From a virus: a stretch of 64,000 nt of DNA. The translations under genes were made by a program, and so were the position numbers. Under the pieces are notes generated by a model. That model was given only the letters and a program-made list of their open reading frames with translations. It made no database searches and was not told where the DNA came from. This document shows, piece by piece, positions 5,786-63,864 of the stretch. Location: the IMG/VR virus record IMGVR_UViG_3300044568_002523. The stretch is one strand, 5' to 3'. The first letter of the stretch is position 1; the number at the start of each line of letters is the position of its first letter.

Positions 5786-6586
5786 ATGAAAGAAAAAAGC
5801 TCAGGTATTCCAATTAATCAAGAAGAGATTAACTTGTATTTAAAAGATATTCGTAAGATTAAAGTAATGACCCCCGAGAGAGAACGAGAACTTTCCAAAA
5901 TGATTAGTTCCGGTACTTTAACACCAAAACAAATTGAAGAGGTGCATCAAGAACTATTGGAGGGTAATTTACGTTTTGTTATTACGGTTGCAAAACAATA
6001 TCAGAATCAAGGTTTGGATTTCCCCGATTTAATTTCTGAAGGTAATTTAGGGTTGATGAAAGCCATTCAAAATTTTGATTGGTCGAAGAACCTTAGATTT
6101 ATTTCCTATGCCGTGTGGTGGGTTAAACAATCCATTCTCCAATCATTGAATGATAATGCTCGAACAATCAGACTACCGGTTAATGTGGTTCAGGATTTAC
6201 ATAGAGCGAAGAAGGCAATCGAATCTAATGGTGGTAAGTTGGAGGATAAGTTCCAAAACCTACCTTCAATGATTGACTTGGATATGAGTATCAACGAAGA
6301 TGGTGATACTCTTGTTGATATTATTAAAAATGACCAAGCGGATATGCCTGACGAGGCGTTTGACACTAAAGATGAATTAAAAAAACAATTAATCTCTTTA
6401 TTAAATGTGTTGGATGAAAGGGAAAAGGTTATCATTGAAGACTATTATGGTCTTACCGGGACACCAAGAACCCTTGAGGATATTGGTAGTGATTTTAATC
6501 TAACAAAGGAACGTGTTAGACAAATCAAAGAGAAAGCCTTACGAAAATTAAGGAACGATAGTTCAGTATTATATGATTATATGTAA
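5786..6586 (+). CDS. sigma-70 family RNA polymerase sigma factor (phage-encoded)
   Basis: 266 aa. Region 2 (LISEGNLGLMKAIQNFDWSKNLRFISYAVWWVKQSI) and region 4 HTH (TLEDIGSDFNLTKERVRQIKEKALRKLR). Confidence 0.8.
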   Translation: MKEKSSGIPINQEEINLYLKDIRKIKVMTPERERELSKMISSGTLTPKQIEEVHQELLEGNLRFVITVAKQYQNQGLDFPDLISEGNLGLMKAIQNFDWSKNLRFISYAVWWVKQSILQSLNDNARTIRLPVNVVQDLHRAKKAIESNGGKLEDKFQNLPSMIDLDMSINEDGDTLVDIIKNDQADMPDEAFDTKDELKKQLISLLNVLDEREKVIIEDYYGLTGTPRTLEDIGSDFNLTKERVRQIKEKALRKLRNDSSVLYDYM

Positions 6587-6656: not shown

Positions 6657-6926
6657 ATGAAAGGAATATTAAATTTTATTGATGCTTGGGGAGTTAGAAT
6701 AATGTTTTTACTTGTAGTAATCATTTTCTTCAAAACCTGTACAACTAACACAAAGGTTCAAAATGTGAATGATAGTGTTGATTCATTATCGGTTAAACTT
6801 CGTAAAGAAATAAAAGTTGAAGGTCTTAAATCTGAGAAAAGAGCTATTCAAGCATCTGATAGAAAAATATTAGATGTTAATAGACAAACTGAGATTGACC
6901 AAGAAATATCTAAATTAGAAAAATAA
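6657..6926 (+). CDS. small single-pass membrane protein (holin-like candidate)
   Basis: 89 aa. One TM segment (IMFLLVVIIFF) followed by a charged tail. Lies upstream of the membrane protein and amidase. Confidence 0.4.
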   Translation: MKGILNFIDAWGVRIMFLLVVIIFFKTCTTNTKVQNVNDSVDSLSVKLRKEIKVEGLKSEKRAIQASDRKILDVNRQTEIDQEISKLEK

Positions 6927-7729
6927 TGAAAAAAATATGGAATTGGGTGATTGAACATCCAAATAGGGCTATGTTCTTAGTCCCAATCTTATTGGTTGCG
7001 GGAATATCAATATCACACGTTGTTTCTTGGTATAATTTAGCGAACCCTATCAGTTGGGCAATTTACTTATCTATTGCAATTGAGATTGGCGCTATGACTG
7101 CATTGGTTGCGGCAACTAATAAAATTAAAGGTGGTGTTTGGTTTATGTTTGGATTAATTACATTCATTCAAATGATTGGTAATATCTTTTTTTGTTATAA
7201 AGAAATTGATGAAACAGGTGAATTATTTAAATCTTGGATGGAACTAACCGGACCGGTGTGGGAGATGTTAGGTTCAAAGGCAAATGATGTAATTGCGATG
7301 AAAAGATGGTTAGCGTTCTTAGAAGGGGGATTACTTCCAATTATCTCATTAACATCTTTACACTTCTTCACCAAATATGATGATGGTAAAACTGATATTG
7401 ATGAAGTAAAAGAGATAATTAAAGAAGTTATTGTGGAAAAAGAGGTTATTAAAGAAGTGCCGGTAGAAGTTGAGAAAATTATTGAAGTTCCGGTAGAAGT
7501 TGAGAAAATTGTTGAAGTTGAGAAAATTATTGAAGTTCCGGTAGAAGTTGAAAAAATTGTTGAGGTAATTAAAGAAGTCCCTGTTGAGGTTGAAAAAATA
7601 GTGGAGAAGATAATAGAGGTTCCTGTTTATCAATCAGAATCTGTCGACATTCAAAATGAATATGTTAGTCCGGGAATGGACACACACGAACCACCACGTC
7701 CAAATAGGTTAAGTTACGTTAAACCATAA
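6926..7729 (+). CDS. multi-pass membrane protein with C-terminal EVPVEVEKI tandem repeats
   Basis: 267 aa. About four hydrophobic segments, then 7-8 in-frame copies of (I)EVPVEVEKI(V/I). Start overlaps the previous stop (ATGA). Confidence 0.6.
   Translation: MKKIWNWVIEHPNRAMFLVPILLVAGISISHVVSWYNLANPISWAIYLSIAIEIGAMTALVAATNKIKGGVWFMFGLITFIQMIGNIFFCYKEIDETGELFKSWMELTGPVWEMLGSKANDVIAMKRWLAFLEGGLLPIISLTSLHFFTKYDDGKTDIDEVKEIIKEVIVEKEVIKEVPVEVEKIIEVPVEVEKIVEVEKIIEVPVEVEKIVEVIKEVPVEVEKIVEKIIEVPVYQSESVDIQNEYVSPGMDTHEPPRPNRLSYVKP
7455..7627 (+). repeat. in-frame tandem repeat (about 27-33 nt units encoding EVPVEVEKIIE)
   Basis: Repeated gaagttccggtagaagttgagaaaatt units seen directly in the sequence. 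Confidence 0.8.
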
Positions 7730-9926: not shown

Positions 9927-10691
9927 ATGAAGTTAAATGAGAGTATTGGTTCAGATTTAAAAAAGGCTTATTCTGAAGAAATAGGAAAATCTAATGTTGT
10001 ATCTCAAGGAGGTATCGATGCGGTAATTACTGCAAATCAATTTAAAAATGAAATCCCTGAGAATAAAAAATTAAAAATAATTAAACGACCAATGAAAAAA
10101 GGTATTACTGATAAATTAGTGGGTAAAACTAAGATTAATAAACCGGTTGGTAAATTAACAACAGGGTTACCAATAATGGGTGAAGATGGTGAAACATCTG
10201 AATCTACCGGTTCAGGTTCCGCAGGTGCTTATTCAGGTCCACTATTCTCAACAACTAAACAAGAAATGCAAGAAAAATGTTGGCCCGGGTATCAACAAAA
10301 AGGTATGAAAAAAAAAGGTGGAAGGATGGTTCCTAATTGTGTGAACGAAAGTAAAGATGGTGATGTTAAAAAAGTTGAAGCCACTGAGGCGACAGGTTCA
10401 GGGTCTTCCGGTTCATATGAAACAACATCTGCTTGGGCTAAGTCAACAAAAAAGAAAGATTGGGGTGGTAGAAAGAAAACACAAATACCGGGAGGTAAAT
10501 TTGTCCAAGTTAAAAAGAAATGTCAAAAATTCCCATATTGTAATCAAGGTGACATCAAGGCTCTAAAAATATTTGAGAATGAAAAAGTTAAACAAGCGAT
10601 TCAGAATATTAGTAAGAGACATAATATAAATGAAAATGTTATTAAAACCATTATTGCTTATGAGTATGAAAATACATTTTCAAAGAAATAA
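9927..10691 (+). CDS. hypothetical Lys-rich protein with internal duplication (TGSGSxGxY…KKK…C)
   Basis: 254 aa. Two related segments: ESTGSGSAGAYSG…GMKKKGGRMVPNC and EATGSGSSGSYET…KKKDWGGRKK…C. Confidence 0.55.
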   Translation: MKLNESIGSDLKKAYSEEIGKSNVVSQGGIDAVITANQFKNEIPENKKLKIIKRPMKKGITDKLVGKTKINKPVGKLTTGLPIMGEDGETSESTGSGSAGAYSGPLFSTTKQEMQEKCWPGYQQKGMKKKGGRMVPNCVNESKDGDVKKVEATEATGSGSSGSYETTSAWAKSTKKKDWGGRKKTQIPGGKFVQVKKKCQKFPYCNQGDIKALKIFENEKVKQAIQNISKRHNINENVIKTIIAYEYENTFSKK

Positions 10692-14428: not shown

Positions 14429-15340
14429 ATGGAAGATTTTTATCAAATATTAGGTGTTAATCAGAACGCCACACAGGACGAAATAAAAAAGGCTTATAGG
14501 AAGTTAGCGGTAGAACATCACCCGGATAAAGGTGGTGATGAGAATAAGTTTAAAAAGATTTCTGAGGCTTATGATACAATAGGTGATGAAAGTAAACGAA
14601 GTCAATATGATAATCAACGAAGAAACCCTTTTGCTGGAATGGGTGGTGGTGGGTTTAATCCATTTGAGAATATGTTCAATCAAATGCACTCACAAAGAAA
14701 ACGTGCGGTACCTGATAAAATTGTTGAAGTTGTGGTTGGTGCTGTAGAGTCATATAAAGGTGGTGAGAAAAATATCACATATAGTAGAAACCATAATTGC
14801 GGTGGATGTAATGGTACCGGTGGTGAAAGAATTAATTGTGGTACTTGTGGTGGTAGTGGAGTTATAACTCAACAAATTGGGACAGGATTGTTCACTCAAA
14901 TTATAAGACAAACTTGTAATTCTTGTGGAGGTAGAGGGTTCTCATATAAAACTACTTGTGGGACTTGTCACGGAAGTACTACTACATCTAGTACTGAAAC
15001 AATATCAATTAAATTACCTAACGGAATTGATGAAGGTCAATTTTTAAGAATTCAAGGTAAAGGGGATTTCAAAGATGGTATGTACGGTAATTTAGTTGTT
15101 AAAGTAAAAATTGTTGCGGAAAATAATTTTGAAAAATCTTTGGAAGATTTAATTTATAATGCTTATTTTGATTTGGATTCACTAAAAGAAGATAGTGTGA
15201 AAGTACCACATCCATTAGGGGACATTTCAATTAAGTTACCTAATGAGTTTGATACATCAAAACCATTACGAGTTAAAGGTAAGGGATATCACGGTAGAGG
15301 TGATTTATATATAAAACTATTTGTTAAGTTTAAAAGATAA
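14429..15340 (+). CDS. dnaJ: DnaJ-family co-chaperone (J domain, G/F region, four CxxCxGxG zinc fingers, C-terminal domain)
   Basis: DFYQILGV…HPDK J-domain with HPD motif; GMGGGGFNPF; CGGCNGTG, CGTCGGSG, CNSCGGRG, CGTCHGST. Confidence 0.85.
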   Translation: MEDFYQILGVNQNATQDEIKKAYRKLAVEHHPDKGGDENKFKKISEAYDTIGDESKRSQYDNQRRNPFAGMGGGGFNPFENMFNQMHSQRKRAVPDKIVEVVVGAVESYKGGEKNITYSRNHNCGGCNGTGGERINCGTCGGSGVITQQIGTGLFTQIIRQTCNSCGGRGFSYKTTCGTCHGSTTTSSTETISIKLPNGIDEGQFLRIQGKGDFKDGMYGNLVVKVKIVAENNFEKSLEDLIYNAYFDLDSLKEDSVKVPHPLGDISIKLPNEFDTSKPLRVKGKGYHGRGDLYIKLFVKFKR

Positions 15341-15670: not shown

Positions 15671-16519
15671 ATGGCATTATCGTACATCGGAGGTAAATCA
15701 AAAATAGGTAAATGGATTGTTCCATTCATACCTCAAGACATTGAAACATATATAGAACCATTTTCAGGTATGTTTTGGGTATTCTTTAATATGGACTTAT
15801 CCAAATACCCCAATCTAAAGGAAGTTGTTTACAATGACTTCAATCCACTTAACTACAATTTATTCCAATGTCTTCAGAATCCTGAGAGATTATTGGAAGA
15901 AGTGAATAACATTCCTTGTCAACAAAGGAATGAGTTTCCGACACCAGACATCTATAAAGAACAATTTATCAGGTTCCAAGCTGAAATATTTGAAACCAAT
16001 TTCAGAGTACAGGCTTACGATTATGTTGTTGCTGCGAAATATGCTTATATATTGGCTCAAGTATTCTCAGGGTCTAAACCAGAAACAAGTTCATTTATAG
16101 ACTTGAAAGGAAAGTATAAATCAAAGTATCTTACCTTCAGAGATAAGTTATCTAAACCGGATTGGGTGGAACACTTTTTAAAGATTACTAAAGTGGAAAA
16201 TATGGACTTTGAAGATGTTATTAAAAAGTATGATAGTTCATCTACATATGTTTATGCTGACCCTCCATATTGGAAAACTGAGAACTATTATAACAACCAC
16301 GACTTTGATAGTGCGGACCACGAGAGACTTGCGGATTGTTTAAAAGGTGTTCAAGGGAAGTTCTCTTTATCTTATTATGATTTCCCACAATTACACGATT
16401 GGTTTCCTGAATCACAATTTGTGTGGGAGAAGAAAGAGTTCGCTAAAGCGGCTGCGGCTAAGAAGGGTAAAACTCAAAATATGGGTGAAGAACTTTTAAT
16501 TATGAATTACCAAAAATAG
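15671..16519 (+). CDS. Dam-like (D12 class) N6-adenine DNA methyltransferase
   Basis: IGGKSKIGKWIVPFIP…EPFSGMFWVF and VYADPPYW motifs. Confidence 0.8.
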   Translation: MALSYIGGKSKIGKWIVPFIPQDIETYIEPFSGMFWVFFNMDLSKYPNLKEVVYNDFNPLNYNLFQCLQNPERLLEEVNNIPCQQRNEFPTPDIYKEQFIRFQAEIFETNFRVQAYDYVVAAKYAYILAQVFSGSKPETSSFIDLKGKYKSKYLTFRDKLSKPDWVEHFLKITKVENMDFEDVIKKYDSSSTYVYADPPYWKTENYYNNHDFDSADHERLADCLKGVQGKFSLSYYDFPQLHDWFPESQFVWEKKEFAKAAAAKKGKTQNMGEELLIMNYQK

Positions 16520-26478: not shown

Positions 26479-27336
26479 ATGATAGAAACAGGAAAGATTA
26501 TAAATGGTGATTGTGTTGAGGTAATGAAAAGTTTACCTGAAGGTTGTATCGATATGGTGGTTACTAGTCCCCCATATTCTGCGGGGATTAAATATGATGT
26601 GTATGATGATAATACACCAATGGATGAATATTGGGAATTTACTAAAAAATGGTTGTCAGGTGTTTACAGAGTATTAAAAGATGACGGAAGAGTTGCTATT
26701 AATGTTCCAATAGAAATGAACGTTCAAGAAAGAGGTGGAAGAATATTATTTAACGCAGAGTTTTGGATGGTGATGAAAGAAGTTGGATTCAAATTTTTTG
26801 GGATGATTGATTTGACTGAGGATTCTCCCCATCGAGTTAGACAAACAGCTTGGGGTAGTTGGATGAGTAATAGTCAGCCTTACATTTATAATCCAAAAGA
26901 GTGTGTGATATTGGCTTATAAAAATTCACCTAAGAAATTAACCAAAGGGGAATCTCAGTGGATGGGAACTCCAACCGAAATTACTGATGAAAATGGTAAA
27001 GTCAGAACCAAAATGGTTTATAAAGATGAAGACAAGAAAGAGTTTATGAACTTGGTGTTTGGACGATGGGAATACTTTGCTGATACTAAATCATTAACAA
27101 AGGCCACATTCTCTATGGACATCCCGGTTAAAGCCATCAAGATATTATCATATAAGAACGATATAGTTCTTGACCCATTTATGGGAAGTGGAACATCAGC
27201 GGTTGCTGCTGAAACATTAGGGAGACGATGGTTGGGAATTGAGTTATCACCAAACTATACCGATATAGCAAGAAAACGAGTGAATGCGTTTATTGAGGAC
27301 CGGAAACAATTAGAGTTAGAATTAAAAGAGGTGTAA
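26479..27336 (+). CDS. DNA methyltransferase, N4/N6 beta-class (pfam N6_N4_Mtase-like)
   Basis: Motif IV first (VVTSPPYS) and then motif I (VLDPFMGSGTSAVAA), which is the beta-class order. Confidence 0.8.
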   Translation: MIETGKIINGDCVEVMKSLPEGCIDMVVTSPPYSAGIKYDVYDDNTPMDEYWEFTKKWLSGVYRVLKDDGRVAINVPIEMNVQERGGRILFNAEFWMVMKEVGFKFFGMIDLTEDSPHRVRQTAWGSWMSNSQPYIYNPKECVILAYKNSPKKLTKGESQWMGTPTEITDENGKVRTKMVYKDEDKKEFMNLVFGRWEYFADTKSLTKATFSMDIPVKAIKILSYKNDIVLDPFMGSGTSAVAAETLGRRWLGIELSPNYTDIARKRVNAFIEDRKQLELELKEV

Positions 27337-30026: not shown

Positions 30027-30062
30027 CCCTCAACAGAGTAAATTTTGTTGAGGTTTTTTTTG
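30027..30062 (+). terminator. rho-independent terminator
   Basis: CCCTCAAC…GTTGAGG stem followed by T9. Confidence 0.7.
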
Positions 30063-30089
30063 TTTATATCAAAAATAGTGTTATCTTTG
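30059..30089 (+). promoter_or_regulatory. Bacteroidetes-type promoter (TTTG-N19-TATCTTTG)
   Basis: TTTG at 30059-30062 and TATCTTTG at 30082-30089. The ATG at 30113 follows. Confidence 0.6.
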
Positions 30090-30112
30090 TCGGGAATTTA
30101 ATTTATAAAATT

Positions 30113-30876: not shown

Positions 30877-31137
30877 ATGGTAAAATTAATATACAGATAC
30901 GATTGGGGTGGAGAACCTTGTGGTGGAACAGAATATGTACCTTTTGAATATAAAGGGAAAGATGAGTTTGTATACGATGTCTTAAAAAGATTCAATAAAA
31001 AATACTTCAAAGAACATAATTACGCCGAAATATTGGGACAGTATCTAAATGAGGGTGATATCAATGATATTGAACATAATGTTTTAACATTAGAAGAGTG
31101 GTTTAGTAAAAGAAAAGAAATTACATTTGCGTTGTAG
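30877..31137 (+). CDS. hypothetical protein (start refined to MVKLIYRYD)
   Basis: The ATG lies immediately after the previous stop. Confidence 0.4.
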   Translation: MVKLIYRYDWGGEPCGGTEYVPFEYKGKDEFVYDVLKRFNKKYFKEHNYAEILGQYLNEGDINDIEHNVLTLEEWFSKRKEITFAL

Positions 31138-31152
31138 AAAAAATACAAAAAC

Positions 31153-31183
31153 TTTGTTATTGTAAAAAATAGTATTATCTTTG
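31153..31183 (+). promoter_or_regulatory. Bacteroidetes-type promoter (TTTG-N19-TATCTTTG)
   Basis: TTTG at 31153-31156 and TATCTTTG at 31176-31183. The ATG at 31199 follows. Confidence 0.6.
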
Positions 31184-31198
31184 TCAAAAATATAACAT

Positions 31199-33937: not shown

Positions 33938-33963
33938 AGAGGAACATTTAGTTCCTTTTTTTT
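33938..33963 (+). terminator. rho-independent terminator
   Basis: AGGAAC-ATTTA-GTTCCT followed by T9. Confidence 0.7.
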
Positions 33964-33991
33964 GTTTATATGAAATAAAGTATTATCTTTG
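33961..33991 (+). promoter_or_regulatory. Bacteroidetes-type promoter (TTTG-N19-TATCTTTG), possibly producing a leaderless mRNA
   Basis: The -7 box ends at 33991 and the ATG is at 33996. Confidence 0.55.
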
Positions 33992-33995
33992 TACT

Positions 33996-35067: not shown

Positions 35068-35985
35068 ATGAGAATAATTGTAACAGGTGGAGCTGGATTT
35101 ATTGGGTCGGCATTCATTAATTACCTTAAAGGTAACTACCAATGTGATGTTGTATGTGTTGATAATTTGTCGTATTGTGGTGATAAAGACAATATAAAAT
35201 ATGATGTTGAATTTATTGAAAAAGATATTTGTGATGTTACTTCAGAAGATTTGGGTGACTACGATTATTTGGTTCATTTTGCTGCGGAATCTCACGTAGA
35301 TAACTCAATTAAAAACGGATTACCGTTTGTTAAAACAAATGTTCAGGGTACATTTAATTTATTGGAATGTGCTAGAAAAAACGGTAATTTAAAAAAGTTT
35401 GTTCATATTTCAACCGATGAGGTTTATGGTGATATGGATAAAGATGTTAATAAGACATCAAATGAAGAACATCCAATTCAACCAAGTTCTTATTATTCAT
35501 CAACAAAAGCGTCTTCCGATTTATTAGTTTTATCTGCTCATAGAACTTATGGTTTACCATATTTAATGACAAGAACTTGTAATAATTTTGGTGAGCATCA
35601 GTATGAAGAGAAATTTTTACCAAAGATTTATGAATGTGTTAAAATGGGTAAAGAAGTTCCGGTTTATGGTGATGGAGAACAAGTTAGAGAATGGATTTAT
35701 GTTTATGATAATGTAAGAGTTATAACTGATTTAATGTTGGATAATGAAGTAATTAATGATGTGTATAACATAGGTTCAGGTATCAGATATAAAAATATTG
35801 ATTTGATTAATATTATATCAAACATATTAAATAAAAAAGTTAACTATAAATTTGTTGAGGATAGATTGGGTCACGATAGAGCTTATCGTTTGAATTGTTC
35901 TAAATTAAATGAATATTATAAAAAAAGAGATGAGTCTGTGGTTTATAAAAAAATAAGTGATTACTTATTAGAGTTATATAAATAA
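35068..35985 (+). CDS. dTDP-glucose 4,6-dehydratase-like NAD-dependent epimerase/dehydratase (extended SDR)
   Basis: MRIIVTGGAGFIGSAF Rossmann start, an NDP-sugar dehydratase-like HFAAESHVDNS segment and catalytic YSSTK (YxxxK). Confidence 0.8.
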   Translation: MRIIVTGGAGFIGSAFINYLKGNYQCDVVCVDNLSYCGDKDNIKYDVEFIEKDICDVTSEDLGDYDYLVHFAAESHVDNSIKNGLPFVKTNVQGTFNLLECARKNGNLKKFVHISTDEVYGDMDKDVNKTSNEEHPIQPSSYYSSTKASSDLLVLSAHRTYGLPYLMTRTCNNFGEHQYEEKFLPKIYECVKMGKEVPVYGDGEQVREWIYVYDNVRVITDLMLDNEVINDVYNIGSGIRYKNIDLINIISNILNKKVNYKFVEDRLGHDRAYRLNCSKLNEYYKKRDESVVYKKISDYLLELYK

Positions 35986-44552: not shown

Positions 44553-44792
44553 ATGAAAAGTTTATTGAAGTTTTTAGGAGTATTAGTTGTGTTGTTTGTT
44601 TGGATTGAGTTGGTTGATTTTTCATTCTACTTGATGAACTTATCTGACACGTTATGGTTTTATGTTGGATTTTTTATGATAGCGTTAATAACTATCGGCC
44701 CAATATTTTATTTTGGTGATAACATTGCTATGTTCTTGAAGAATATGAAAGGTGTTTTCACGTATAAAGACGAAGAAGAAAAAAAAGATTAA
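44553..44792 (+). CDS. small two-TM membrane protein
   Basis: 79-aa ORF. Confidence 0.4.
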   Translation: MKSLLKFLGVLVVLFVWIELVDFSFYLMNLSDTLWFYVGFFMIALITIGPIFYFGDNIAMFLKNMKGVFTYKDEEEKKD

Positions 44793-44798
44793 AAAAAA

Positions 44799-44829
44799 TT
44801 TGGTGGTACGGAATAAAATAATATCTTTG
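44799..44829 (+). promoter_or_regulatory. Bacteroidetes-type promoter (TTTG-N19-TATCTTTG)
   Basis: TTTG at 44799-44802 and TATCTTTG at 44822-44829. The ATG at 44868 follows. Confidence 0.6.
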
Positions 44830-44867
44830 TACCCAATTAAAAAAGTAATAATTTAAAAAACAAAAAA

Positions 44868-45704
44868 ATGAGTAGAGGTAAATTTATTTTAGTAGTGGTA
44901 GTGTTAATTTTCGCAAGTTTATTCTTGATGAACTCTTGTGAACAAATCGATGCGGGTCACGTAGGTGTCAAAGTTGATATGTATGGAAGTGGTAAAGGGG
45001 TGAATGATGTCACCGAGTGTACGGGTGTGGTATTTTATAATCCAATCACAACAAAAATTTATGAGTTCCCAACATTCATTCAACACAAAGAATACAAAGA
45101 GGAAAATTCATTTGTAGTAAACAGTAAGGATGGTTCGGAATTTAGAGTCTCTCCAATTATGAACTATTCAGTTCAAAGGGAAAAAGTTCCGGGAATATTT
45201 GCTAAATACAGAAGAAGTTTAGATGAAATTGAGGAAGGATTCTTAAAGACCGCTGTGTATGACGCATTCCGTTTGGCAACTAATAAGTATACCGCCGATG
45301 GATTAATTGGAAATAGAGAAGTTTTTGAGGTTGAAGTTAGACGATTGTTAGAATCTCAATTACTTAAGGAAGGATTTGTAATCAATCAGTTCACATCTAA
45401 TTTAGTATATCCGGATTCATTCAAGAAAGCGATTAATGCTAAGAACAACGCGGTACAAAAAAGTTTGATGGCTGAAAACCAAGTTAAACAAGCTGAGGCC
45501 GAGGCAAAAATTAAAATCGCTAAAGCTAATGGTGAGGCAGAATCTATATTAACACTTGCAAAAGCTGAGGCGGAATCTAATAGATTAAGACAGCAAACAT
45601 TAACACCTATGTTATTACAACAACAATGGATTGAGAAATGGAGAGGTAATGTTCCAACAACACAGTTAGGTGGTAACACTCAAGTGTTGTACGGTTTAAA
45701 ATAA
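44868..45704 (+). CDS. SPFH/band-7 (prohibitin/stomatin-like) membrane protein
   Basis: N-terminal TM, PHB-domain-like region and a C-terminal AEAEAKIKIAKANGEAESILTLAKAEAES coiled coil. Confidence 0.75.
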   Translation: MSRGKFILVVVVLIFASLFLMNSCEQIDAGHVGVKVDMYGSGKGVNDVTECTGVVFYNPITTKIYEFPTFIQHKEYKEENSFVVNSKDGSEFRVSPIMNYSVQREKVPGIFAKYRRSLDEIEEGFLKTAVYDAFRLATNKYTADGLIGNREVFEVEVRRLLESQLLKEGFVINQFTSNLVYPDSFKKAINAKNNAVQKSLMAENQVKQAEAEAKIKIAKANGEAESILTLAKAEAESNRLRQQTLTPMLLQQQWIEKWRGNVPTTQLGGNTQVLYGLK

Positions 45705-57834: not shown

Positions 57835-58034
57835 ATGTCCGTTATTCTAAACAAAAAAACAATAATGTCCATAATAACGGACATTTACATTTATTCCTAC
57901 GTAAAAGTGTAATCAATAAATATATTTCATTTGCATAACACCACACAATGTGTAGTATTGCGTGAATGAAATATATTACCAATCATCATAATATAAACCC
58001 CAATTTATGAGGTCTATCCTACCACAAAAGGTAA

Positions 58035-58331
58035 TTACTTCATATTCTTTAAGACAGCTTCCAACATATCAATAGATATCTTATCCTGTTTGGTTTTTGC
58101 AGGTTTTTTCTTGAGATATTCCAATGATTCAATCATCTCTTGTTTTTTATCTATAGGTTTAAGAGGAGAGTTAGGAACGTTGATTGGTTTTTTAACAACT
58201 TCCATAGGTTTATCTTTGTAGATGATGGTTGTGGATTCACCAACCATTGCGAGAATGTCCTGAGCGGTTTTTTCCGCTACGGATTTAATCAATTTCTTAT
58301 AATCTTTCTTGGTTAATTTTATTGTTTTCAT
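58035..58331 (-). CDS. hypothetical Lys-rich protein
   Basis: 98-aa minus-strand ORF. Confidence 0.5.
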   Translation of the reverse strand: MKTIKLTKKDYKKLIKSVAEKTAQDILAMVGESTTIIYKDKPMEVVKKPINVPNSPLKPIDKKQEMIESLEYLKKKPAKTKQDKISIDMLEAVLKNMK

Positions 58332-58366
58332 ATTTCAAAGATACAACATATTTTTTGTTCCCACAA

Positions 58367-58375
58367 GATATTTAT
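58367..58375 (+). promoter_or_regulatory. GATATTTAT class 2 element
   Basis: Lies 4 nt upstream of the ATG at 58380. Confidence 0.45.
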
Positions 58376-58379
58376 CACT

Positions 58380-58787
58380 ATGGATATACAGGAAAACATA
58401 TATAGAATTAAACAATTAATGACTGAAGGTAAGGACGCTTACGTTGAAAGAGCTCGTTATGACCAAGAGTATGAGGAAGAATATCCAAAATGGAAAAAAT
58501 CTATAATTAAGCTTTTAGAGATGGAAATAGATTCAATGGCGGAAATTAACAATGGTAAAATAATAGTTTTACTTAATGGGAAAAACCTTGACAAAAATTT
58601 AATGAAATATGATAAAATAAATGAAAGATTATGGTATGATTATTCCTTACAAGAAAATTTGGAAGGGTATATACCATACGGTTATTTATCAAGACATTTT
58701 AAATACGCGGTTCAGGACTTCTTCAAAAAACATTTCCCGAATTATGGTGTTAGAGAACTAACGGCTGCGAGTTTAGTAAGTTACTAA
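58380..58787 (+). CDS. hypothetical protein with MDIQENIYRIKQLM N-terminal motif
   Basis: 135-aa ORF. Confidence 0.5.
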   Translation: MDIQENIYRIKQLMTEGKDAYVERARYDQEYEEEYPKWKKSIIKLLEMEIDSMAEINNGKIIVLLNGKNLDKNLMKYDKINERLWYDYSLQENLEGYIPYGYLSRHFKYAVQDFFKKHFPNYGVRELTAASLVSY

Positions 58788-58827
58788 TGAAAGTAGATTA
58801 GAGAAAGCGATTACCGATTATTTGGAT

Positions 58828-58930
58828 GTTGTTGTCACCTATAATTTGTAATGTTCCTCCACCCTAAAATATTTGTGCAAACTTGTACTAGCAGTTGTTG
58901 TCACCTCTAATTTGTAATGTTCCTCCACCC
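58828..58930 (-). repeat. 66-bp-period tandem repeat x2 (reverse complement of the 49531 repeat core)
   Basis: Copies at 58828-58864 and 58894-58930. The gene's stop codon (TAG) is created by a single substitution in the distal copy. Confidence 0.8.
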
Positions 58931-59168
58931 ATTCCTTTGTTAGGTCTTGTATTTCCTCGTATTCTAACCCAAAAAAGGATTTTAAAAATGACCAAATTTT
59001 ATTATAAGAAATATAAATATACTCATTTTTTTTATTGTAATCAAAAATAAGTTCCCCATCTTTCATAAAGAAAATGTAATCCGGATATTTCTCCGTTTCA
59101 AATTGTTCCAACTCCGGATATTCGGAGTTTAGATATTTGATTATTTTATTTTTAAGATTGTCTGTCAT
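58839..59168 (-). CDS. paralog of 49276-49582 (…ETEKYPDYIFF…WSFLKSFFGLEYEEIQDLTKEWVEEHYKL) on the opposite strand
   Basis: 109 aa, with a clear protein-level and about 75% nucleotide-level match to 49276-49582 over the 3' half. Confidence 0.55.
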   Translation of the reverse strand: MTDNLKNKIIKYLNSEYPELEQFETEKYPDYIFFMKDGELIFDYNKKNEYIYISYNKIWSFLKSFFGLEYEEIQDLTKEWVEEHYKLEVTTTASTSLHKYFRVEEHYKL

Positions 59169-59264
59169 TATATTCCTTTTTGGTTAATTTTATTTTTTTC
59201 ATAGGGCAAACATACAATAATAATTTAAGTTGACAAAATTATTTCGAATGATTATTATTGTTGT

Positions 59265-59513
59265 ATGAGAATTAAAGCGATATATAAGAAAAACTTAAAG
59301 ATGAGTGAGGGTAAAGTGGCGGCACAGATTGCTCACGCAGTTAAGAATTTGGGGATAACACCGGTTGATAGTGATATCATAGTATTAAAGGTGTCAGATA
59401 AGAAGTTTGATGAGTTAACATCACAGAATGATTGTTATATTCAAACAGATAAAGGTATGACCGAGGTGGAATCAGGAACACAAACCGCAGCGGCTTGGAT
59501 TGAGATACAATAA
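59265..59513 (+). CDS. PTH2-family peptidyl-tRNA hydrolase-like protein
   Basis: KMSEGKVAAQIAHA, IIVLKV and DKGMTEVESGTQTAAAW match the Pth2 core motifs (KMGKGKIAAQCAHA…VVLKV…DAG.T.I.PGT.T). Confidence 0.65.
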   Translation: MRIKAIYKKNLKMSEGKVAAQIAHAVKNLGITPVDSDIIVLKVSDKKFDELTSQNDCYIQTDKGMTEVESGTQTAAAWIEIQ

Positions 59514-59821
59514 TGGCAAATTTTAGTAAAGAATATATTGAGAAGTATTTCCCGGAATGGTGTTACGACTTCTCGGTATATGATATGTTCAACGAGATAG
59601 AGGAAGGACATTATAGAAGTAAAATCTGTGAAGGGTTTGGTTTTGTTGGTGTATCAAATAATAATGGAATATGTGAGGTTGCTTTCTTAACTGATAAAGA
59701 TGAAAGTGGTGTGGTATGGGTTCCATTTGATGAGGTGGATAATCAAACTTATAAACAATATAAATACTATGGACTTAAACAAAGAACTAACAAAAATGAA
59801 AAGTATGATGGGATTAAATGA
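59513..59821 (+). CDS. hypothetical protein
   Basis: 102 aa with ATGA overlap. Confidence 0.5.
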   Translation: MANFSKEYIEKYFPEWCYDFSVYDMFNEIEEGHYRSKICEGFGFVGVSNNNGICEVAFLTDKDESGVVWVPFDEVDNQTYKQYKYYGLKQRTNKNEKYDGIK

Positions 59822-60335
59822 GAATAAACAAACATATCCCTATTCTTGTGTAATGTTATACTTTAATCCGGATGCGGTTACTGAACTACACAATAAAATA
59901 AACCCTGAAGATTTATATGTGGAGGAAGATGGATTTGGTTTAGAACCGGAATCACATTGTACATTACTATACGGATTACACGACAACGAGGTAACACCGG
60001 AACAAATAGAACAAATCTTAGGTAACAAAACCTTTACAACTTGTAAGGCACACAACCTATCTTGTTTCAACAATCCAAAGTATGATGTGTTAAAATATGA
60101 TATCGTGGGGGACAATCTAAGTGAAACAAATGAGGAGTTAAAACAATTCCCATTCACAAGTGATTACCCTGACTATCATCCACATATGACCATTGCATAT
60201 CTTAAACCGGGCAAAGGTAAGGAATATATTGATATGTTGGGTAAAGACCACAAAGAAATGTGGATGTCACCACAACACGCAGTCTATTCAAGAACAAATG
60301 GGGGGAAATTAAAAATTCCTGTAAGAATAGATTAA
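59796..60335 (+). CDS. 2H phosphoesterase superfamily protein (LigT/cyclic phosphodiesterase-like)
   Basis: Two H-x-T-x motifs (SHCTLLY and PHMTIAY) about 85 aa apart. Start is approximate (alternatives 59769 and 59796). Confidence 0.65.
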   Translation: MKSMMGLNENKQTYPYSCVMLYFNPDAVTELHNKINPEDLYVEEDGFGLEPESHCTLLYGLHDNEVTPEQIEQILGNKTFTTCKAHNLSCFNNPKYDVLKYDIVGDNLSETNEELKQFPFTSDYPDYHPHMTIAYLKPGKGKEYIDMLGKDHKEMWMSPQHAVYSRTNGGKLKIPVRID

Positions 60336-60340
60336 ATAAA

Positions 60341-60371
60341 TTTGGTGGATTAAAAAATAGTATTATCTTTG
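60341..60371 (+). promoter_or_regulatory. Bacteroidetes-type promoter (TTTG-N19-TATCTTTG)
   Basis: AAATTTGGTGG…TATCTTTGTACCC is near-identical to the promoter at 44799. The ATG at 60400 follows. Confidence 0.6.
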
Positions 60372-60399
60372 TACCCAATATTAATTAAAATATAAAATT

Positions 60400-60915
60400 A
60401 TGATTTCTGAAGGACAGTTTTTGATTGGGTTAATTGTGATATTAACAATTGGTTTATCGGTATTATTTTATAAATGGGCATCGTTTGAGGGTGTACCTGT
60501 GATTCTCACATTTTTATGTGGTTTTTTAGGTTCATTGATATTAACAATGGTTATTTTTCCCACCATTAGATGGGTAGATTCAGATACTACAGAGTATTAT
60601 TCCAGAAGAGCAAACATCACATCAATAAAGAATAGTAATGAGGTTGGTGGTAGTTTTACGTTGGGTTGTGGTACAATAGAGCAAACAGAGTATTACTACT
60701 ACTATTACAAATCAGTTGATGGTTATGTAAGAGGTAAGAAACCGGTTAATGAAACATTCATTGTTGAGGATGGTTCGGACAAACCACACGTTGAGGTTAA
60801 GATGACACATTTTGAATCAAAGTCGGGGTTATTCACCTATCACGATGAGGAAAATAGTAAGTATAAGATAGTTGTTCCAAAGGGAACTGTTGTTAACAAA
60901 TTTGAGGTATATTAA
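60400..60915 (+). CDS. membrane protein (2 N-terminal TM segments)
   Basis: 171-aa ORF. Confidence 0.5.
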   Translation: MISEGQFLIGLIVILTIGLSVLFYKWASFEGVPVILTFLCGFLGSLILTMVIFPTIRWVDSDTTEYYSRRANITSIKNSNEVGGSFTLGCGTIEQTEYYYYYYKSVDGYVRGKKPVNETFIVEDGSDKPHVEVKMTHFESKSGLFTYHDEENSKYKIVVPKGTVVNKFEVY

Positions 60916-60917
60916 TT

Positions 60918-61532
60918 ATGATAGTAAATACAATTGAGTTCCCACAACCGGTTGGGGTAAAATGTAATATGATGCCATTCATTCAAGGTGATAGTTCATC
61001 ATTACCGGAAGAATACAAATCTTATTCAAAGATAGTCGATGAGAATTATCTTGAGAAAGGTGAGATTGGTTATCTAACTATTGATGAATCATTTGTTGAT
61101 GGTGGAAAAACACAAAGAGGTTATAACTCCAAGGGAATTGACAGAAACGTCCACATCGAAGTCGGAAGATATGAGAATAAAAACCGATGGGGTGGAAGTG
61201 GTGGAGGTTCATCTTGGGGTGGAAGAAACCATACCTTATTAGATGATGGCACGATGGTGTTGATTGCCAACAACATTTCTGATACTTGTAGAGTATGGGA
61301 CACCAAAGAGATGTCGTATACTGACGATGGTGATTTGAGTGAATACATAGATAGATATCCGGAACATACCGGGTTGATGTTAAAATCGGGTGAGGTTGCA
61401 AAGATAAGTATTTTTACACCACACGAGTGTGTTTCACAAAAAGAATCTAAATTCAGACAATTCTTTAGAATTGTTGGTAAAGGTGTTACCGGAAGAGAAG
61501 AATATTTTACGGTTAACCCGTTATTAAATTAA
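60918..61532 (+). CDS. hypothetical protein
   Basis: 204-aa ORF. The antisense ORFs are judged spurious. Confidence 0.5.
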   Translation: MIVNTIEFPQPVGVKCNMMPFIQGDSSSLPEEYKSYSKIVDENYLEKGEIGYLTIDESFVDGGKTQRGYNSKGIDRNVHIEVGRYENKNRWGGSGGGSSWGGRNHTLLDDGTMVLIANNISDTCRVWDTKEMSYTDDGDLSEYIDRYPEHTGLMLKSGEVAKISIFTPHECVSQKESKFRQFFRIVGKGVTGREEYFTVNPLLN

Positions 61533-61534
61533 TT

Positions 61535-61816
61535 ATGGAACTACCAACTGACTACACAAAACTAACCCAATCACAAAGGAGGGAAGTTAGACTACAGTAT
61601 ATCAAGGAACAAAACAATATGTGTATGTATTGTGGTGAGACATTAGATGAGGTTGCTCCAAAGAGAATAACAGACAAACCAATTAATTGGAGGTTATTCC
61701 CGGAGGGTTTCTTACAACATCCAATCCATCTTCAACATTGTCACAAAACCAATATGACAGAAGGTGCGGTCCATAGTTATTGTAATGCCGTTCTATGGCA
61801 ATACGAAGGGAGATAA
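61535..61816 (+). CDS. Endonuclease VII-like (T4 gp49-like) zinc-binding nuclease, tentative
   Basis: CMYCG, HLQHCHKT and G.VHSYCN resemble the Endo VII C..C…H.DH.H…G.V.G.LC..CN pattern. Confidence 0.4.
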   Translation: MELPTDYTKLTQSQRREVRLQYIKEQNNMCMYCGETLDEVAPKRITDKPINWRLFPEGFLQHPIHLQHCHKTNMTEGAVHSYCNAVLWQYEGR

Positions 61817-61825
61817 AATTAAACG

Positions 61826-61852
61826 AGGGAAAGTAATTTTTCCCTTTTTTTT
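61826..61852 (+). terminator. rho-independent terminator
   Basis: AGGGAAA-GTAATT-TTTCCCT followed by T8. Confidence 0.65.
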
Positions 61853-61860
61853 ATATTTAT
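61853..61860 (+). promoter_or_regulatory. ATATTTAT class 2 element
   Basis: Lies 4 nt upstream of the ATG at 61865. Confidence 0.45.
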
Positions 61861-61864
61861 AGTT

Positions 61865-62635
61865 ATGAACTTAAATGAAGATATACAAAGAATAAGACAA
61901 ATTATGATTTCTGAGGAGATGGTTCAATCAGATGCGTGGAAATCAATCAAGAAAACATTAGATATTCTTAAAAAGAAAAAGAAAGTTTTAATCTTAAGTT
62001 GTTCCAATAGATATAATTGGGATGAAAAAAACCTTGACATACCAAAATCAAAAATGATTGCAATGTATCTTAACGATGAGTTAAAAGACTCAGTGTTAAT
62101 TGATGTCTCTGAACTTAATATAGTTCCTTGTGAGGGGAATGTATCAAGAAAAGACGGGAACAGTTGTGGATTACTTAAAGCAATGCTCAAAGATAAGAAA
62201 AAGAATCCATCCGGGGACCATAGATGTTGGGCAAGTTTCAACAACCCAAAGGATGAGTTATGGAAGATATCCAAAGAGTTATTTGAGTCAGACGCGGTTA
62301 TATTCTTTAGTTCAATTAGATGGGGACAAACCAATATGTTCTATCAGAATTTAATTGAGAGATTGACTTGGATTGAGAACAGACACGCAACCTTGGGGGA
62401 ATCAAATATTGTTAAAGACATTGAGACCGGATTCATTTGTGTTGGGCAGAATTGGAATGGTGAGAACGTAACTGAAATACAAAAGAAAGTTCACGAGTTT
62501 TATGGATTCAAACCAAACGATGATTTATATTGGAATTGGCAATATACAAAAAATGTTAATGATGAAACTCAAAAATCATATAAAGCTTCTCATAACAAAT
62601 TTATAAAAGATACTAAATTACCTGAGGATAAATAA
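61865..62635 (+). CDS. flavodoxin-like fold protein (NAD(P)H-dependent FMN reductase-like), tentative; MNLNEDIQRIRQIM N-terminus
   Basis: KKVLILSCSNRYNW and DAVIFFSSIRWGQTNMFYQNLIERL resemble the flavodoxin_2/FMN_red layout. Confidence 0.4.
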   Translation: MNLNEDIQRIRQIMISEEMVQSDAWKSIKKTLDILKKKKKVLILSCSNRYNWDEKNLDIPKSKMIAMYLNDELKDSVLIDVSELNIVPCEGNVSRKDGNSCGLLKAMLKDKKKNPSGDHRCWASFNNPKDELWKISKELFESDAVIFFSSIRWGQTNMFYQNLIERLTWIENRHATLGESNIVKDIETGFICVGQNWNGENVTEIQKKVHEFYGFKPNDDLYWNWQYTKNVNDETQKSYKASHNKFIKDTKLPEDK

Positions 62636-63381: not shown

Positions 63382-63864
63382 ATGAACTTACACGAGAATA
63401 TATATAGAATTAAAACTTTAATGGTTGAGGACAAGAGTATTTCCAATATGGTTAAAACTTTGGGATTATATGATGCCATCCGTTATTTTGGTGGGTATGA
63501 AAATCTTAAAAGTATGATTGGGGATAATGATATTAAAAATGTGATATTAAATAGTGTAATCTCAAAAAAAGATAAGGTTGAATTAATTAAACAACTTGTG
63601 AAGGAGATTAATGAATCGTTGGGTAATCAACCGGATGAAGGATTTTGGTTTGACGATTTAGGTAAAGACCCACTTGATGTTGACCCAAGTTTTGTTTATG
63701 ATGATGAAATAACCCTTATACAGATTGAGTTATTTTACCTTAACGTGGTTGTTATGTATTATTATGGTGGGGAGAATAACTCGCGAGAAATGGGTAATAC
63801 TGATGAATATTATGACTATTTACCTGAGAGTATATTAGACAGTATAATTGAGTATTTATTATAA
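63382..63864 (+). CDS. hypothetical protein with MNLHENIYRIKTLM N-terminal motif
   Basis: 160-aa ORF. Confidence 0.5.
   Translation: MNLHENIYRIKTLMVEDKSISNMVKTLGLYDAIRYFGGYENLKSMIGDNDIKNVILNSVISKKDKVELIKQLVKEINESLGNQPDEGFWFDDLGKDPLDVDPSFVYDDEITLIQIELFYLNVVVMYYYGGENNSREMGNTDEYYDYLPESILDSIIEYLL

Follow-up and report, generated by a model that had tools for sequence, protein, structure and literature searches.

Acb1 and other 2H phosphodiesterases (PDEs) have been described from hundreds of phages (PMC9117128; 10.1101/2025.08.21.671373). T4 Acb1 carries the catalytic tetrad H44/T46/H113/T115, and the aromatic residues Y12, W74 and F107 provide base stacking (Hobbs et al., PMC9117128). There are many 2H PDEs in phages, and their structural groups differ in messenger specificity; one member, PDE-9, has an N-terminal lid instead of a C-terminal one (Doherty et al., 10.1101/2025.08.21.671373). 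Jumbo phages are also known to carry genes for PTH2-type peptidyl-tRNA hydrolases (Iyer et al. 2021). Here we analyse a locus at positions 59265-60335 of a 64,000-nucleotide stretch of viral DNA (IMG/VR record IMGVR_UViG_3300044568_002523; the whole stretch is called the window), in which a PTH2-like gene (A), a small gene without known relative (B) and a gene for a 2H phosphoesterase (C) lie side by side. An initial annotation, made from the DNA letters, had read the three as a candidate module for RNA repair or anti-defence. Our comparison indicates that C most likely degrades cyclic-oligonucleotide immune signals, as judged from its resemblance to Acb1, and that A, B and C are independently shuffled accessory cassettes.

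Relationship of gene C to Acb1-type phosphodiesterases

The + strand at 59265-60335 holds three co-oriented open reading frames (ORFs), as had been listed before, with a corrected start for C:

59265-59513, + strand: gene A, 82-aa compact PTH2-fold protein (mini peptidyl-tRNA hydrolase)
59513-59821, + strand: gene B, 102-aa small phage protein, family without known relative
59769-60335, + strand: gene C, 188-aa 2H phosphoesterase of the Acb1 family; reading frame open from 59700

The ATG of B overlaps the stop codon of A as TAATG. Homologues of C are almost all ~188 aa long and start with the equivalent of MDLNKELTKMKSMMGL, and in DNA alignments with related contigs the C cassette is homologous from 59754-59764 onwards. 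The start of C is thus the ATG at 59769 and not position 59700 or a site after B. With this start, the 5' end of C and the 3' end of B overlap by 53 nt.

The initial annotation had recognised C as a 2H phosphoesterase with two HxT motifs, and this stands. The motifs, H63-C-T65 (59955-59963) and H139-M-T141 (60183-60191), are invariant at all four histidine and threonine positions in 31 homologues spanning 48-87% identity, and in a MAFFT alignment they coincide with the H44/T46/H113/T115 tetrad of T4 Acb1. Against the Pfam Acb1 model (PF23474) C scores 33.3 bits (gathering score 27, E 4.7e-8) over profile positions 36-111 of 144, and most C homologues carry PF23474 in precomputed annotation. 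Among solved structures the C sequence matches Acb1s only (7T26/7T27, 9Q2G/9Q2Y), weakly, with E between 0.06 and 0.8, and when the solved structures are searched with a profile of the C family, weak Acb1 matches are again the only result. The segment DYPDYHPHMTIAY of C matches DYPDYRPHITLSY in the Acb1 of phage FBB1 and DFDDYTPHITLSY in T4 Acb1, and the motif DYPDYxPHxT(I/L)(A/S)Y is common to all three proteins. In a comparison of the C family with T4 Acb1 by hhalign just the second HxT motif is aligned, with a probability of 33%, and the wider residue mapping derives from MAFFT. This mapping places the base-stacking residues Y12, W74 and F107 of T4 Acb1 on the conserved Y31, F100 and Y133 of C, a correspondence with moderate support given the low identity.

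Structure prediction followed by a fold search had been proposed as a check of the locus and gives a 2H fold for C (AlphaFold, pLDDT (predicted local distance difference test) 84.9). The best Foldseek match of the model is PDE-9 of phage BCSR5 (9q2g, E 3.7e-6), followed by a penguinpox cyclic GMP-AMP PDE, and the top matches as a group are viral cyclic-dinucleotide PDEs.

The resemblance to described Acb1s is thus substantial and incomplete at the same time. With the enzymes of T4 (gene 57B) and Erwinia phage FBB1 (7T26/7T27) C shares the 2H fold, the HxT/HxT tetrad, DYPDYxPHxT and the stacking aromatics, and with the Acb1-type PDE-9 of Burkholderia phage BCSR5 (9Q2G/9Q2Y) it shares an N-terminal extension before the core; identity in structural alignments is 16-22%. 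It differs from Acb1 in a larger core (~170 aa), in an extra C-terminal beta-hairpin (residues 164-184) and in the absence of the C-terminal lid with E141 and W147. Its N-terminal segment is a leader that is also found on unrelated proteins, and the host is probably a member of the Bacteroidota, not of the Proteobacteria (see below).

Three points weigh against assigning C to the degradation of immune messengers. The C-terminal lid of T4 Acb1 (residues 145-152, W147 among them, and E141, which is specific for adenine) has no alignable counterpart in C, which ends in a different beta-hairpin without a terminal aromatic lid. Some groups of phage 2H PDEs are inactive on all 18 messengers tested (Doherty et al., 10.1101/2025.08.21.671373). 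The modelled fold by itself would say just "2H enzyme", leaving a LigT-like role in RNA end healing possible, so that the Acb1 assignment rests on sequence. As to the first of these points, the position of the lid is not strictly family-defining, since in PDE-9, which belongs to the same structural group, the lid is N-terminal.

The alternative raised by the fold is that C acts as a LigT/ThpR-like RNA 2',3'-cyclic phosphodiesterase or 2'-5' ligase-like enzyme that heals the ends of cleaved host or phage RNAs. We regard this as rather unlikely. C lies far under the cut-off of the NCBIfam ThpR/LigT equivalog TIGR02258 (17.3 versus 65.7 bits) and below the gathering scores of the generic 2H models PF02834 (LigT_PEase; 12.6 versus 23.3) and PF13563 (2_5_RNA_ligase2; 22.9 versus 27), while that of Acb1 is exceeded; its sequence matches in the PDB are Acb1 proteins only, and viral cyclic-dinucleotide PDEs lead the Foldseek matches. 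Compared with LigT/ThpR proteins (E. coli LigT; P. horikoshii PH0099, 1VGJ/1VDX), C shows 13% identity and has no associated RNA repair genes, with neither an RNA ligase nor a kinase nearby, as judged from a Pfam scan of 30 window ORFs. Degradation of cyclic-oligonucleotide immune signals, one of the two roles suggested by the initial annotation, is consequently the best-supported reading, and the Pfam Acb1 match above threshold is its principal support. Judged by sequence relationship, C is a new, divergent member of the known phage Acb1-type enzymes, from which its presumed substrate is taken over.

Conservation of gene order around A, B and C

We examined the neighbourhoods of 25 non-redundant viral loci of A (±10 kb), 62 loci of C (±10 kb) and 80 loci of B (±6 kb). 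C is present in only two of the A loci, the window and one related contig (L010), and A in only one of the C loci (L029), which lies on the same contig as L010; there the two genes are separated by different genes. None of the 80 B loci contains A, and a single one (L139) contains C, at a distance of 5 kb. A profile of the B family run over all A and C loci found no B anywhere.

The closest comparison is provided by a contig (L009) whose A protein is 100% identical, with 94.5% identity of the DNA. Its sequence matches the window at 59207-59515 and then jumps to 61531, leaving out B, C, ORF 60400 and ORF 60918 (window 59516-61530; L009 junction 10245-10251). A is here joined directly to the homologue of ORF 61535 through an identical TAATG stop/start junction. 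The same contig also lacks window positions 58796-59206, including the minus-strand ORF 58839-59168. In L010 a different 100-aa ORF occupies the slot of B, and an EndoVII-like gene (61535 in the window) lies between A and C. In two further contigs (L030 and L031) C is flanked by homologues of ORFs 61865 and 61535, and the 10 kb on either side contain no A. DNA alignments place all breakpoints among these relatives at gene boundaries.

Since the adjacency of A, B and C is not conserved and the breakpoints sit exactly at gene boundaries, the locus contains no conserved module. A, B and C are independently shuffled accessory cassettes, their side-by-side position in a mosaic region is contingent, and the region 55-64 kb as a whole is a hyperplastic mosaic of single-gene cassettes.

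In another phage lineage, 9 of the 25 A loci (L014 and L016-L023, four distinct arrangements) carry A in a conserved gene set, exemplified by L016 (5708-12097) and L014 (4243-11322) and arranged as follows:

RNA ligase (PF09414)
small ORF
protein with a PARP catalytic domain (PF00644)
gene A
two unknown ORFs

The RNA ligase lies 3-4 kb from A in this lineage, no C-like gene is found within 10 kb, and the other members of the RNA ligase/PARP set have no homologues in the 64-kb window. This neighbourhood offers mild independent support for a role of A in tRNA or translation damage and no link between A and C. The set of RNA ligase, PARP-domain protein and mini-PTH2 is a possible tRNA or RNA damage-response cluster in its own right.

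These data bear on the proposal that A, B and C act together, either in tRNA repair, with C healing 2',3'-cyclic phosphate ends, A freeing peptides from damaged peptidyl-tRNA and B serving as adaptor, or as a three-part anti-defence system. The genes are indeed tightly packed and co-oriented, have overlapping stop and start codons and are probably transcribed as one unit, Iyer et al. place PTH2 and 2H enzymes together under RNA repair and ribosome rescue in jumbo phages, and the lineage just described has A close to an RNA ligase gene. Yet the adjacency is unique to this genome, and the nearest relatives keep A without B and C. Only one other contig has A and C as neighbours, with different genes between them, B never accompanies A elsewhere and approaches C once, and the lineage with A near an RNA ligase has no nearby C. 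A Pfam scan of 30 window ORFs found no RNA ligase or polynucleotide kinase, so that the locus lacks the combination of healing enzyme, ligase and kinase in conserved linkage by which a phage RNA repair module of the T4 Pnk/Rnl1 type is recognised. A joint function is already largely refuted by synteny and in our view very improbable; neither the functional three-gene module nor the part of a third component that had been suggested for B is upheld.

An observation on a neighbouring gene concerns ORF 61535-61816, which encodes a 93-aa EndoVII/HNH-like protein (phrog_14729, E 2.5e-31; weak Pfam matches to Endonuclease_7 and a retron HNH). Its position shifts among the relatives: in L009 it directly follows A, in L010 it separates A from C, and in L030 and L031 it lies after C. 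The gene may encode a small nuclease involved in cassette mobility.

Gene A, a compact PTH2-fold protein

The description of A as Pth2-like in the initial annotation is confirmed. The protein contains the motif GKVAAQIAHA (59310-59339) and scores 28.7 bits against Pfam PTH2 (PF01981; gathering score 23, E 1.6e-6), above the threshold, and two homologues (P0035 and P0120) reach 32.1 and 30.9 bits on the same model. A sequence search of the PDB retrieves archaeal Pth2 chains (1xty, E 8e-4) and human Pth2 structures. These matches of A, like the HxT motifs and the 2H fold of C, go far beyond chance. Residues K17 (59313-59315), D62 (59448-59450) and T66 of A correspond to K18, D86 and T90 in the Pth2 of S. 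solfataricus (1xty), the catalytic residues of that enzyme. As in the Pth2 proteins of S. solfataricus (1XTY) and human (PTRH2/Bit1, 1Q7S), the helix GK(I/V)AAQ(V/I)AHA and the loop D-x-G-x-T-E...G-T are present.

In contrast to archaeal and eukaryotic Pth2, A has 82 instead of ~115-120 aa and lacks ~20 internal and ~20 C-terminal residues. Residues 7-75 span positions 7-94 of the 115-position PTH2 profile, whose C-terminal ~20 positions are absent, so that the 82-aa protein does not contain a complete Pth2 domain of ~115 residues. The NCBIfam Pth2 equivalogs are also missed (NF003314, 31.7 versus 126 bits; TIGR00283, 26.4 versus 82 bits).

Homologues of A form 412 clusters at 90% identity. 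The best 120 of these are 78-99% identical, are nearly all 82 aa long and occur in quite different genomic contexts. More distant members are found in Vibrio phage ICP1 (ORF 15.3, locus tag ICP12017FMathbaria_147; 95 aa, annotated as a hypothetical protein), in Aeromonas phages and in Shewanella phage 1/4, and K17, H24, D62, G64, T66, E67 and T72 are invariant through the ICP1 and Shewanella phage 1/4 homologues. On these sequence comparisons, A is a member of a compact, phage-specific and extremely conserved 82-aa PTH2 clade.

The shortened domain raises the question of whether A is a degenerate PTH2-fold protein without activity, which might bind the CCA end of tRNA or the ribosome, for example as inhibitor or decoy. 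About one-third of the canonical domain is gone, the equivalog scores amount to just a quarter to a third of the cut-offs, and the phage homologues are uncharacterised. An inactive protein appears distinctly unlikely to us, as homologues down to 44% identity all keep the residues aligned with the catalytic Lys and Asp as well as the DxGxTE...GT loop, and the very strong purifying selection (at least 78% identity across 120 clusters in differing contexts) fits an enzyme with a universal substrate. We thus favour an active hydrolase. A tRNA scan of the window found no tRNA genes, so that A has no local tRNA context.

Gene B, a small phage protein

An exhaustive HMMER search with B (E<=1e-3) yields a family of 90 representatives at 50% identity that are typically ~85 aa long and match residues 1-84 of B, with 213 confirmed matches in viral contigs. 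The family motif is MA[DE]FSKEY...DFS...ICEG[FY]GF, in which C39 and G41 are invariant. The conserved domain thus comprises residues 1-84; the last ~18 residues (~85-102) are not conserved and are a read-through of the frame into the 5' end of the C cassette. The predicted structure is confident (pLDDT 87.4) and has two short helices, a sheet of four strands and a helix at the C-terminus. The model gave nothing significant in the fold search against the PDB (best E 0.32). B has no match in Pfam, PHROG or NCBIfam, and none by tblastn in cultured phage records. From the sequence conservation, B belongs to a real and widespread family of small phage proteins.

Proposed activities and significance

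Building on the established ORFs, the family memberships by sequence and fold, the conservation of catalytic residues and the absence of conserved linkage, we propose that A, B and C are three independent accessory cassettes that became adjacent by chance in a probably co-transcribed stretch of a jumbo phage. Through its HxT/HxT tetrad, C would perform metal-independent cleavage of 3'-5' linked cyclic oligonucleotide messengers of CBASS (the antiphage signalling system based on cyclic oligonucleotides) and possibly of type III CRISPR (clustered regularly interspaced short palindromic repeats), with a 2',3'-cyclic phosphate intermediate and a linear 3'-phosphate product, as in the Acb1 mechanism (PMC9117128). 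Loss of the messenger would switch off abortive-infection effectors. A would hydrolyse peptidyl-tRNA or N-acyl-aminoacyl-tRNA and so recycle tRNA during infection, acting alone and not together with C, and B would fill a variable slot after A. We consider it reasonably probable that C degrades immune messengers by the two-step Acb1-type reaction, A independently recycles tRNA and B is an unrelated accessory protein; the substrates and the anti-defence role are those we infer from the family relationships.

Phages are already known to carry Acb1-type 2H phosphodiesterases and PTH2 genes, and as such the locus adds little to what has been catalogued. The initial annotation had held that neither enzyme is a standard phage gene, a view that cannot be maintained given 2H/Acb1 enzymes in hundreds of phages, the reports of PTH2 in jumbo phages and the numbers of homologue clusters at 90% identity (412 for A, 872 for C). 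What the analysis documents is a large, divergent Acb1-like subfamily (the 872 clusters) in phages with a probable Bacteroidota host, whose specificity is worth testing. In Bacteroidota the signal molecules of CBASS are often ones that T4 Acb1 is not known to cleave. In addition, one member of the very strongly conserved 82-aa minimal PTH2 clade is encoded by the model phage ICP1, so that what Pth2 does in phages is open to experiment.

An N-terminal leader shared with unrelated proteins

The first 18 residues of C (MDLNKELTKMKSMMGLNE; 59769-59822, + strand), which end in L-N-E, are a variant of a modular leader of 18-19 aa with the consensus MNLQENIxRIKEMMG[LIV][IL]xE. In the AlphaFold model of C they form a helix over residues 3-13, with a linker of low confidence after it. 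The window contains four copies of the leader, at the N-termini of C and of ORFs 58380, 61865 and 63382:

58380-58436: leader copy
59769-59822, + strand: leader copy of C
61865-61921: leader copy
63382-63438: leader copy

Among 3,755 distinct ORFs of the fetched loci the leader is found at 24 N-termini, compared with 1.0 expected from its internal frequency. It is conserved at the protein level, and synonymous codons vary. An RNA-level or recombination sequence was considered as the origin of the shared N-termini and rejected as main cause, because the amino acids are kept through synonymous codon changes. A degenerate DNA pattern for the leader occurs in at least 120 IMG/VR stretches, frequently with more than one match in a locus, and most of the contigs concerned are 50-320 kb long; one locus (L090) has eight leader-bearing genes within 20 kb, and the leader is also present in loci L174-L293. 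The 103 distinct complete leader proteins listed, from related and mostly giant uncultured phages, comprise at least 51 unrelated cargo clusters, and few of 51 cargo representatives have Pfam domains, namely ART-PolyVal (twice), PG_binding_1, acetyltransferase and P-loop kinases. Beyond position 19-20 conservation is lost. Of the proteins, 95% have L, I or V at position 16 and 63% have Glu at position 19, compared with a background of 7.8%, giving an (I/L)-x-E ending.

In C the leader could act as an N-terminal lid similar to that of PDE-9, consistent with the extension that precedes the core in both proteins. This would leave the presence of the same leader on unrelated proteins unexplained. 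A different precedent is found in T4. Its internal proteins are a diverse group that counters host defence, and a capsid targeting sequence is the one element they have in common (PMC3012670). The prohead protease cleaves T4 Alt at ITE-6 and so removes its first six residues, and every such protease cuts after Glu (PMC5694885). Given these precedents and the (I/L)-x-E ending, the leader looks like a capsid-targeting propeptide. In common with the capsid targeting sequence and the prohead-protease propeptides of T4 (IPI-III, Alt) it is a short conserved N-terminus on diverse cargo with an (I/L)-x-E end, and its cargo includes an ADP-ribosyltransferase, as with T4 Alt. Unlike the T4 elements it has an unrelated sequence and is known here from genes alone, with packaging and cleavage purely inferred, and neither structural genes nor a prohead protease gene are seen in the window.

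By this analogy, the leader would be a capsid-targeting propeptide cut at (I/L)-x-E, and the Acb1-like nuclease would be packaged in the virion and injected with the DNA. We put this forward as a conjecture that is rather unlikely to hold. If it is true, cyclic-nucleotide signalling would be disarmed before any phage gene is expressed, and the leader would identify a large set of injected proteins that had gone unrecognised. A leader that serves as packaging signal would also make injected anti-defence proteins predictable straight from sequence.

Two further classes of N-termini, on small ORFs, also end in (I/L)-x-E. The first, MK[IV][LVI]I[TKR]E, is found at ORF starts 21121, 37881, 41895, 49277, 55621, 56892, 57200 and 57526, and its variant MKILITE is very similar to the propeptide of T4 Alt, cut at ITE-6. 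The other is similar to MK[ED]LI[KR]xILREE and occurs at ORF starts 33016, 52945 (minus strand), 55952, 56299 and 62635. Some of these ORFs may simply be paralogues, such as the tandem 56892, 57200 and 57526.

The motif ATATTTATNNTTATG sits directly on start codons, with 12 matches compared with 1.3 expected (5018, 21109, 22813, 37809, 37869, 40464, 41883, 52943, 53315, 55609, 58368 and 61853), and is often preceded by a GC hairpin and a T-run, for example at 61825-61846. It looks like a phage-specific -10-only promoter that gives near-leaderless mRNAs. As read from the ORF N-termini, 8 of the 12 sites precede genes with N-terminal leaders of the kinds described, which suggests a co-regulated gene class with near-leaderless mRNAs.

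Transcription signals and genome context

Two promoter-like elements flank the three genes:

59230-59258, + strand: promoter-like site TTGACA-17-TATTAT, 11/12 consensus matches, ending 6 nt 5' of the ATG of A
60305-60381, + strand: copy of a repeated intergenic element with the Bacteroidota-type signature TTTG...TAtcTTTG, between the stop of C and ORF 60400 (repeat families D2, D9 and D10)

The sigma-70-like site before A, a possible start of an A-B-C transcript, is a consensus match only, and overall the region has no more sites of this kind than expected from shuffled sequence. The element after C probably starts a new transcription unit, and C would thus end the unit. Taken together, the site before A and the promoter-like repeat after C make it plausible that A, B and C form one short transcription unit.

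Further copies of the intergenic repeat TTTG...TA(tc)TTTG are distributed over the window:

30054-30090: intergenic repeat
31117-31193: intergenic repeat
33956-33992: intergenic repeat
44773-44830: intergenic repeat
52112-52188: intergenic repeat
60305-60381: intergenic repeat, the copy after C

These repeats are likely promoters for the host polymerase, used early. The pattern TTTG...TAnnTTTG corresponds to the -33/-7 promoter consensus of Bacteroidota. No Shine-Dalgarno sequences are found upstream of the start codons, and this, together with the TTTG...TAnnTTTG repeats, indicates that the host is probably a member of the Bacteroidota.

Related IMG/VR contigs have lengths of 175-340 kb, so that the window belongs to an uncultured jumbo phage. 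When cultured phages were searched at the DNA level with window positions 58000-62000, the sole match was a short one of ~70% in the EndoVII-like gene, and there is thus no close cultured relative. The GC content is ~30% throughout the window, and the annotated genes listed here sit among many small ORFs without family match:

951-3317: SbcC-like protein
5786-6586: sigma-70-family factor
14429-15340: full DnaJ
15671-16519: DNA methyltransferase, D12 class
26479-27336: DNA methyltransferase, N6_N4
35068-35985: NAD-dependent sugar epimerase
44868-45704: SPFH/Band 7 protein

Several repeats were noted in addition. Three 40-nt intergenic direct repeats (GAGAGTAAAAAA...TTTTATTTTG) lie at 53201-53320, and three 39-nt copies at 66-nt spacing at 49528-49698. 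A duplication spaced by 66 nt is located at 58828-58930 inside the minus-strand ORF 58839-59168 (EEHYKL repeat), and ORF 6926-7729 contains 30-nt coding repeats at 7400-7566.

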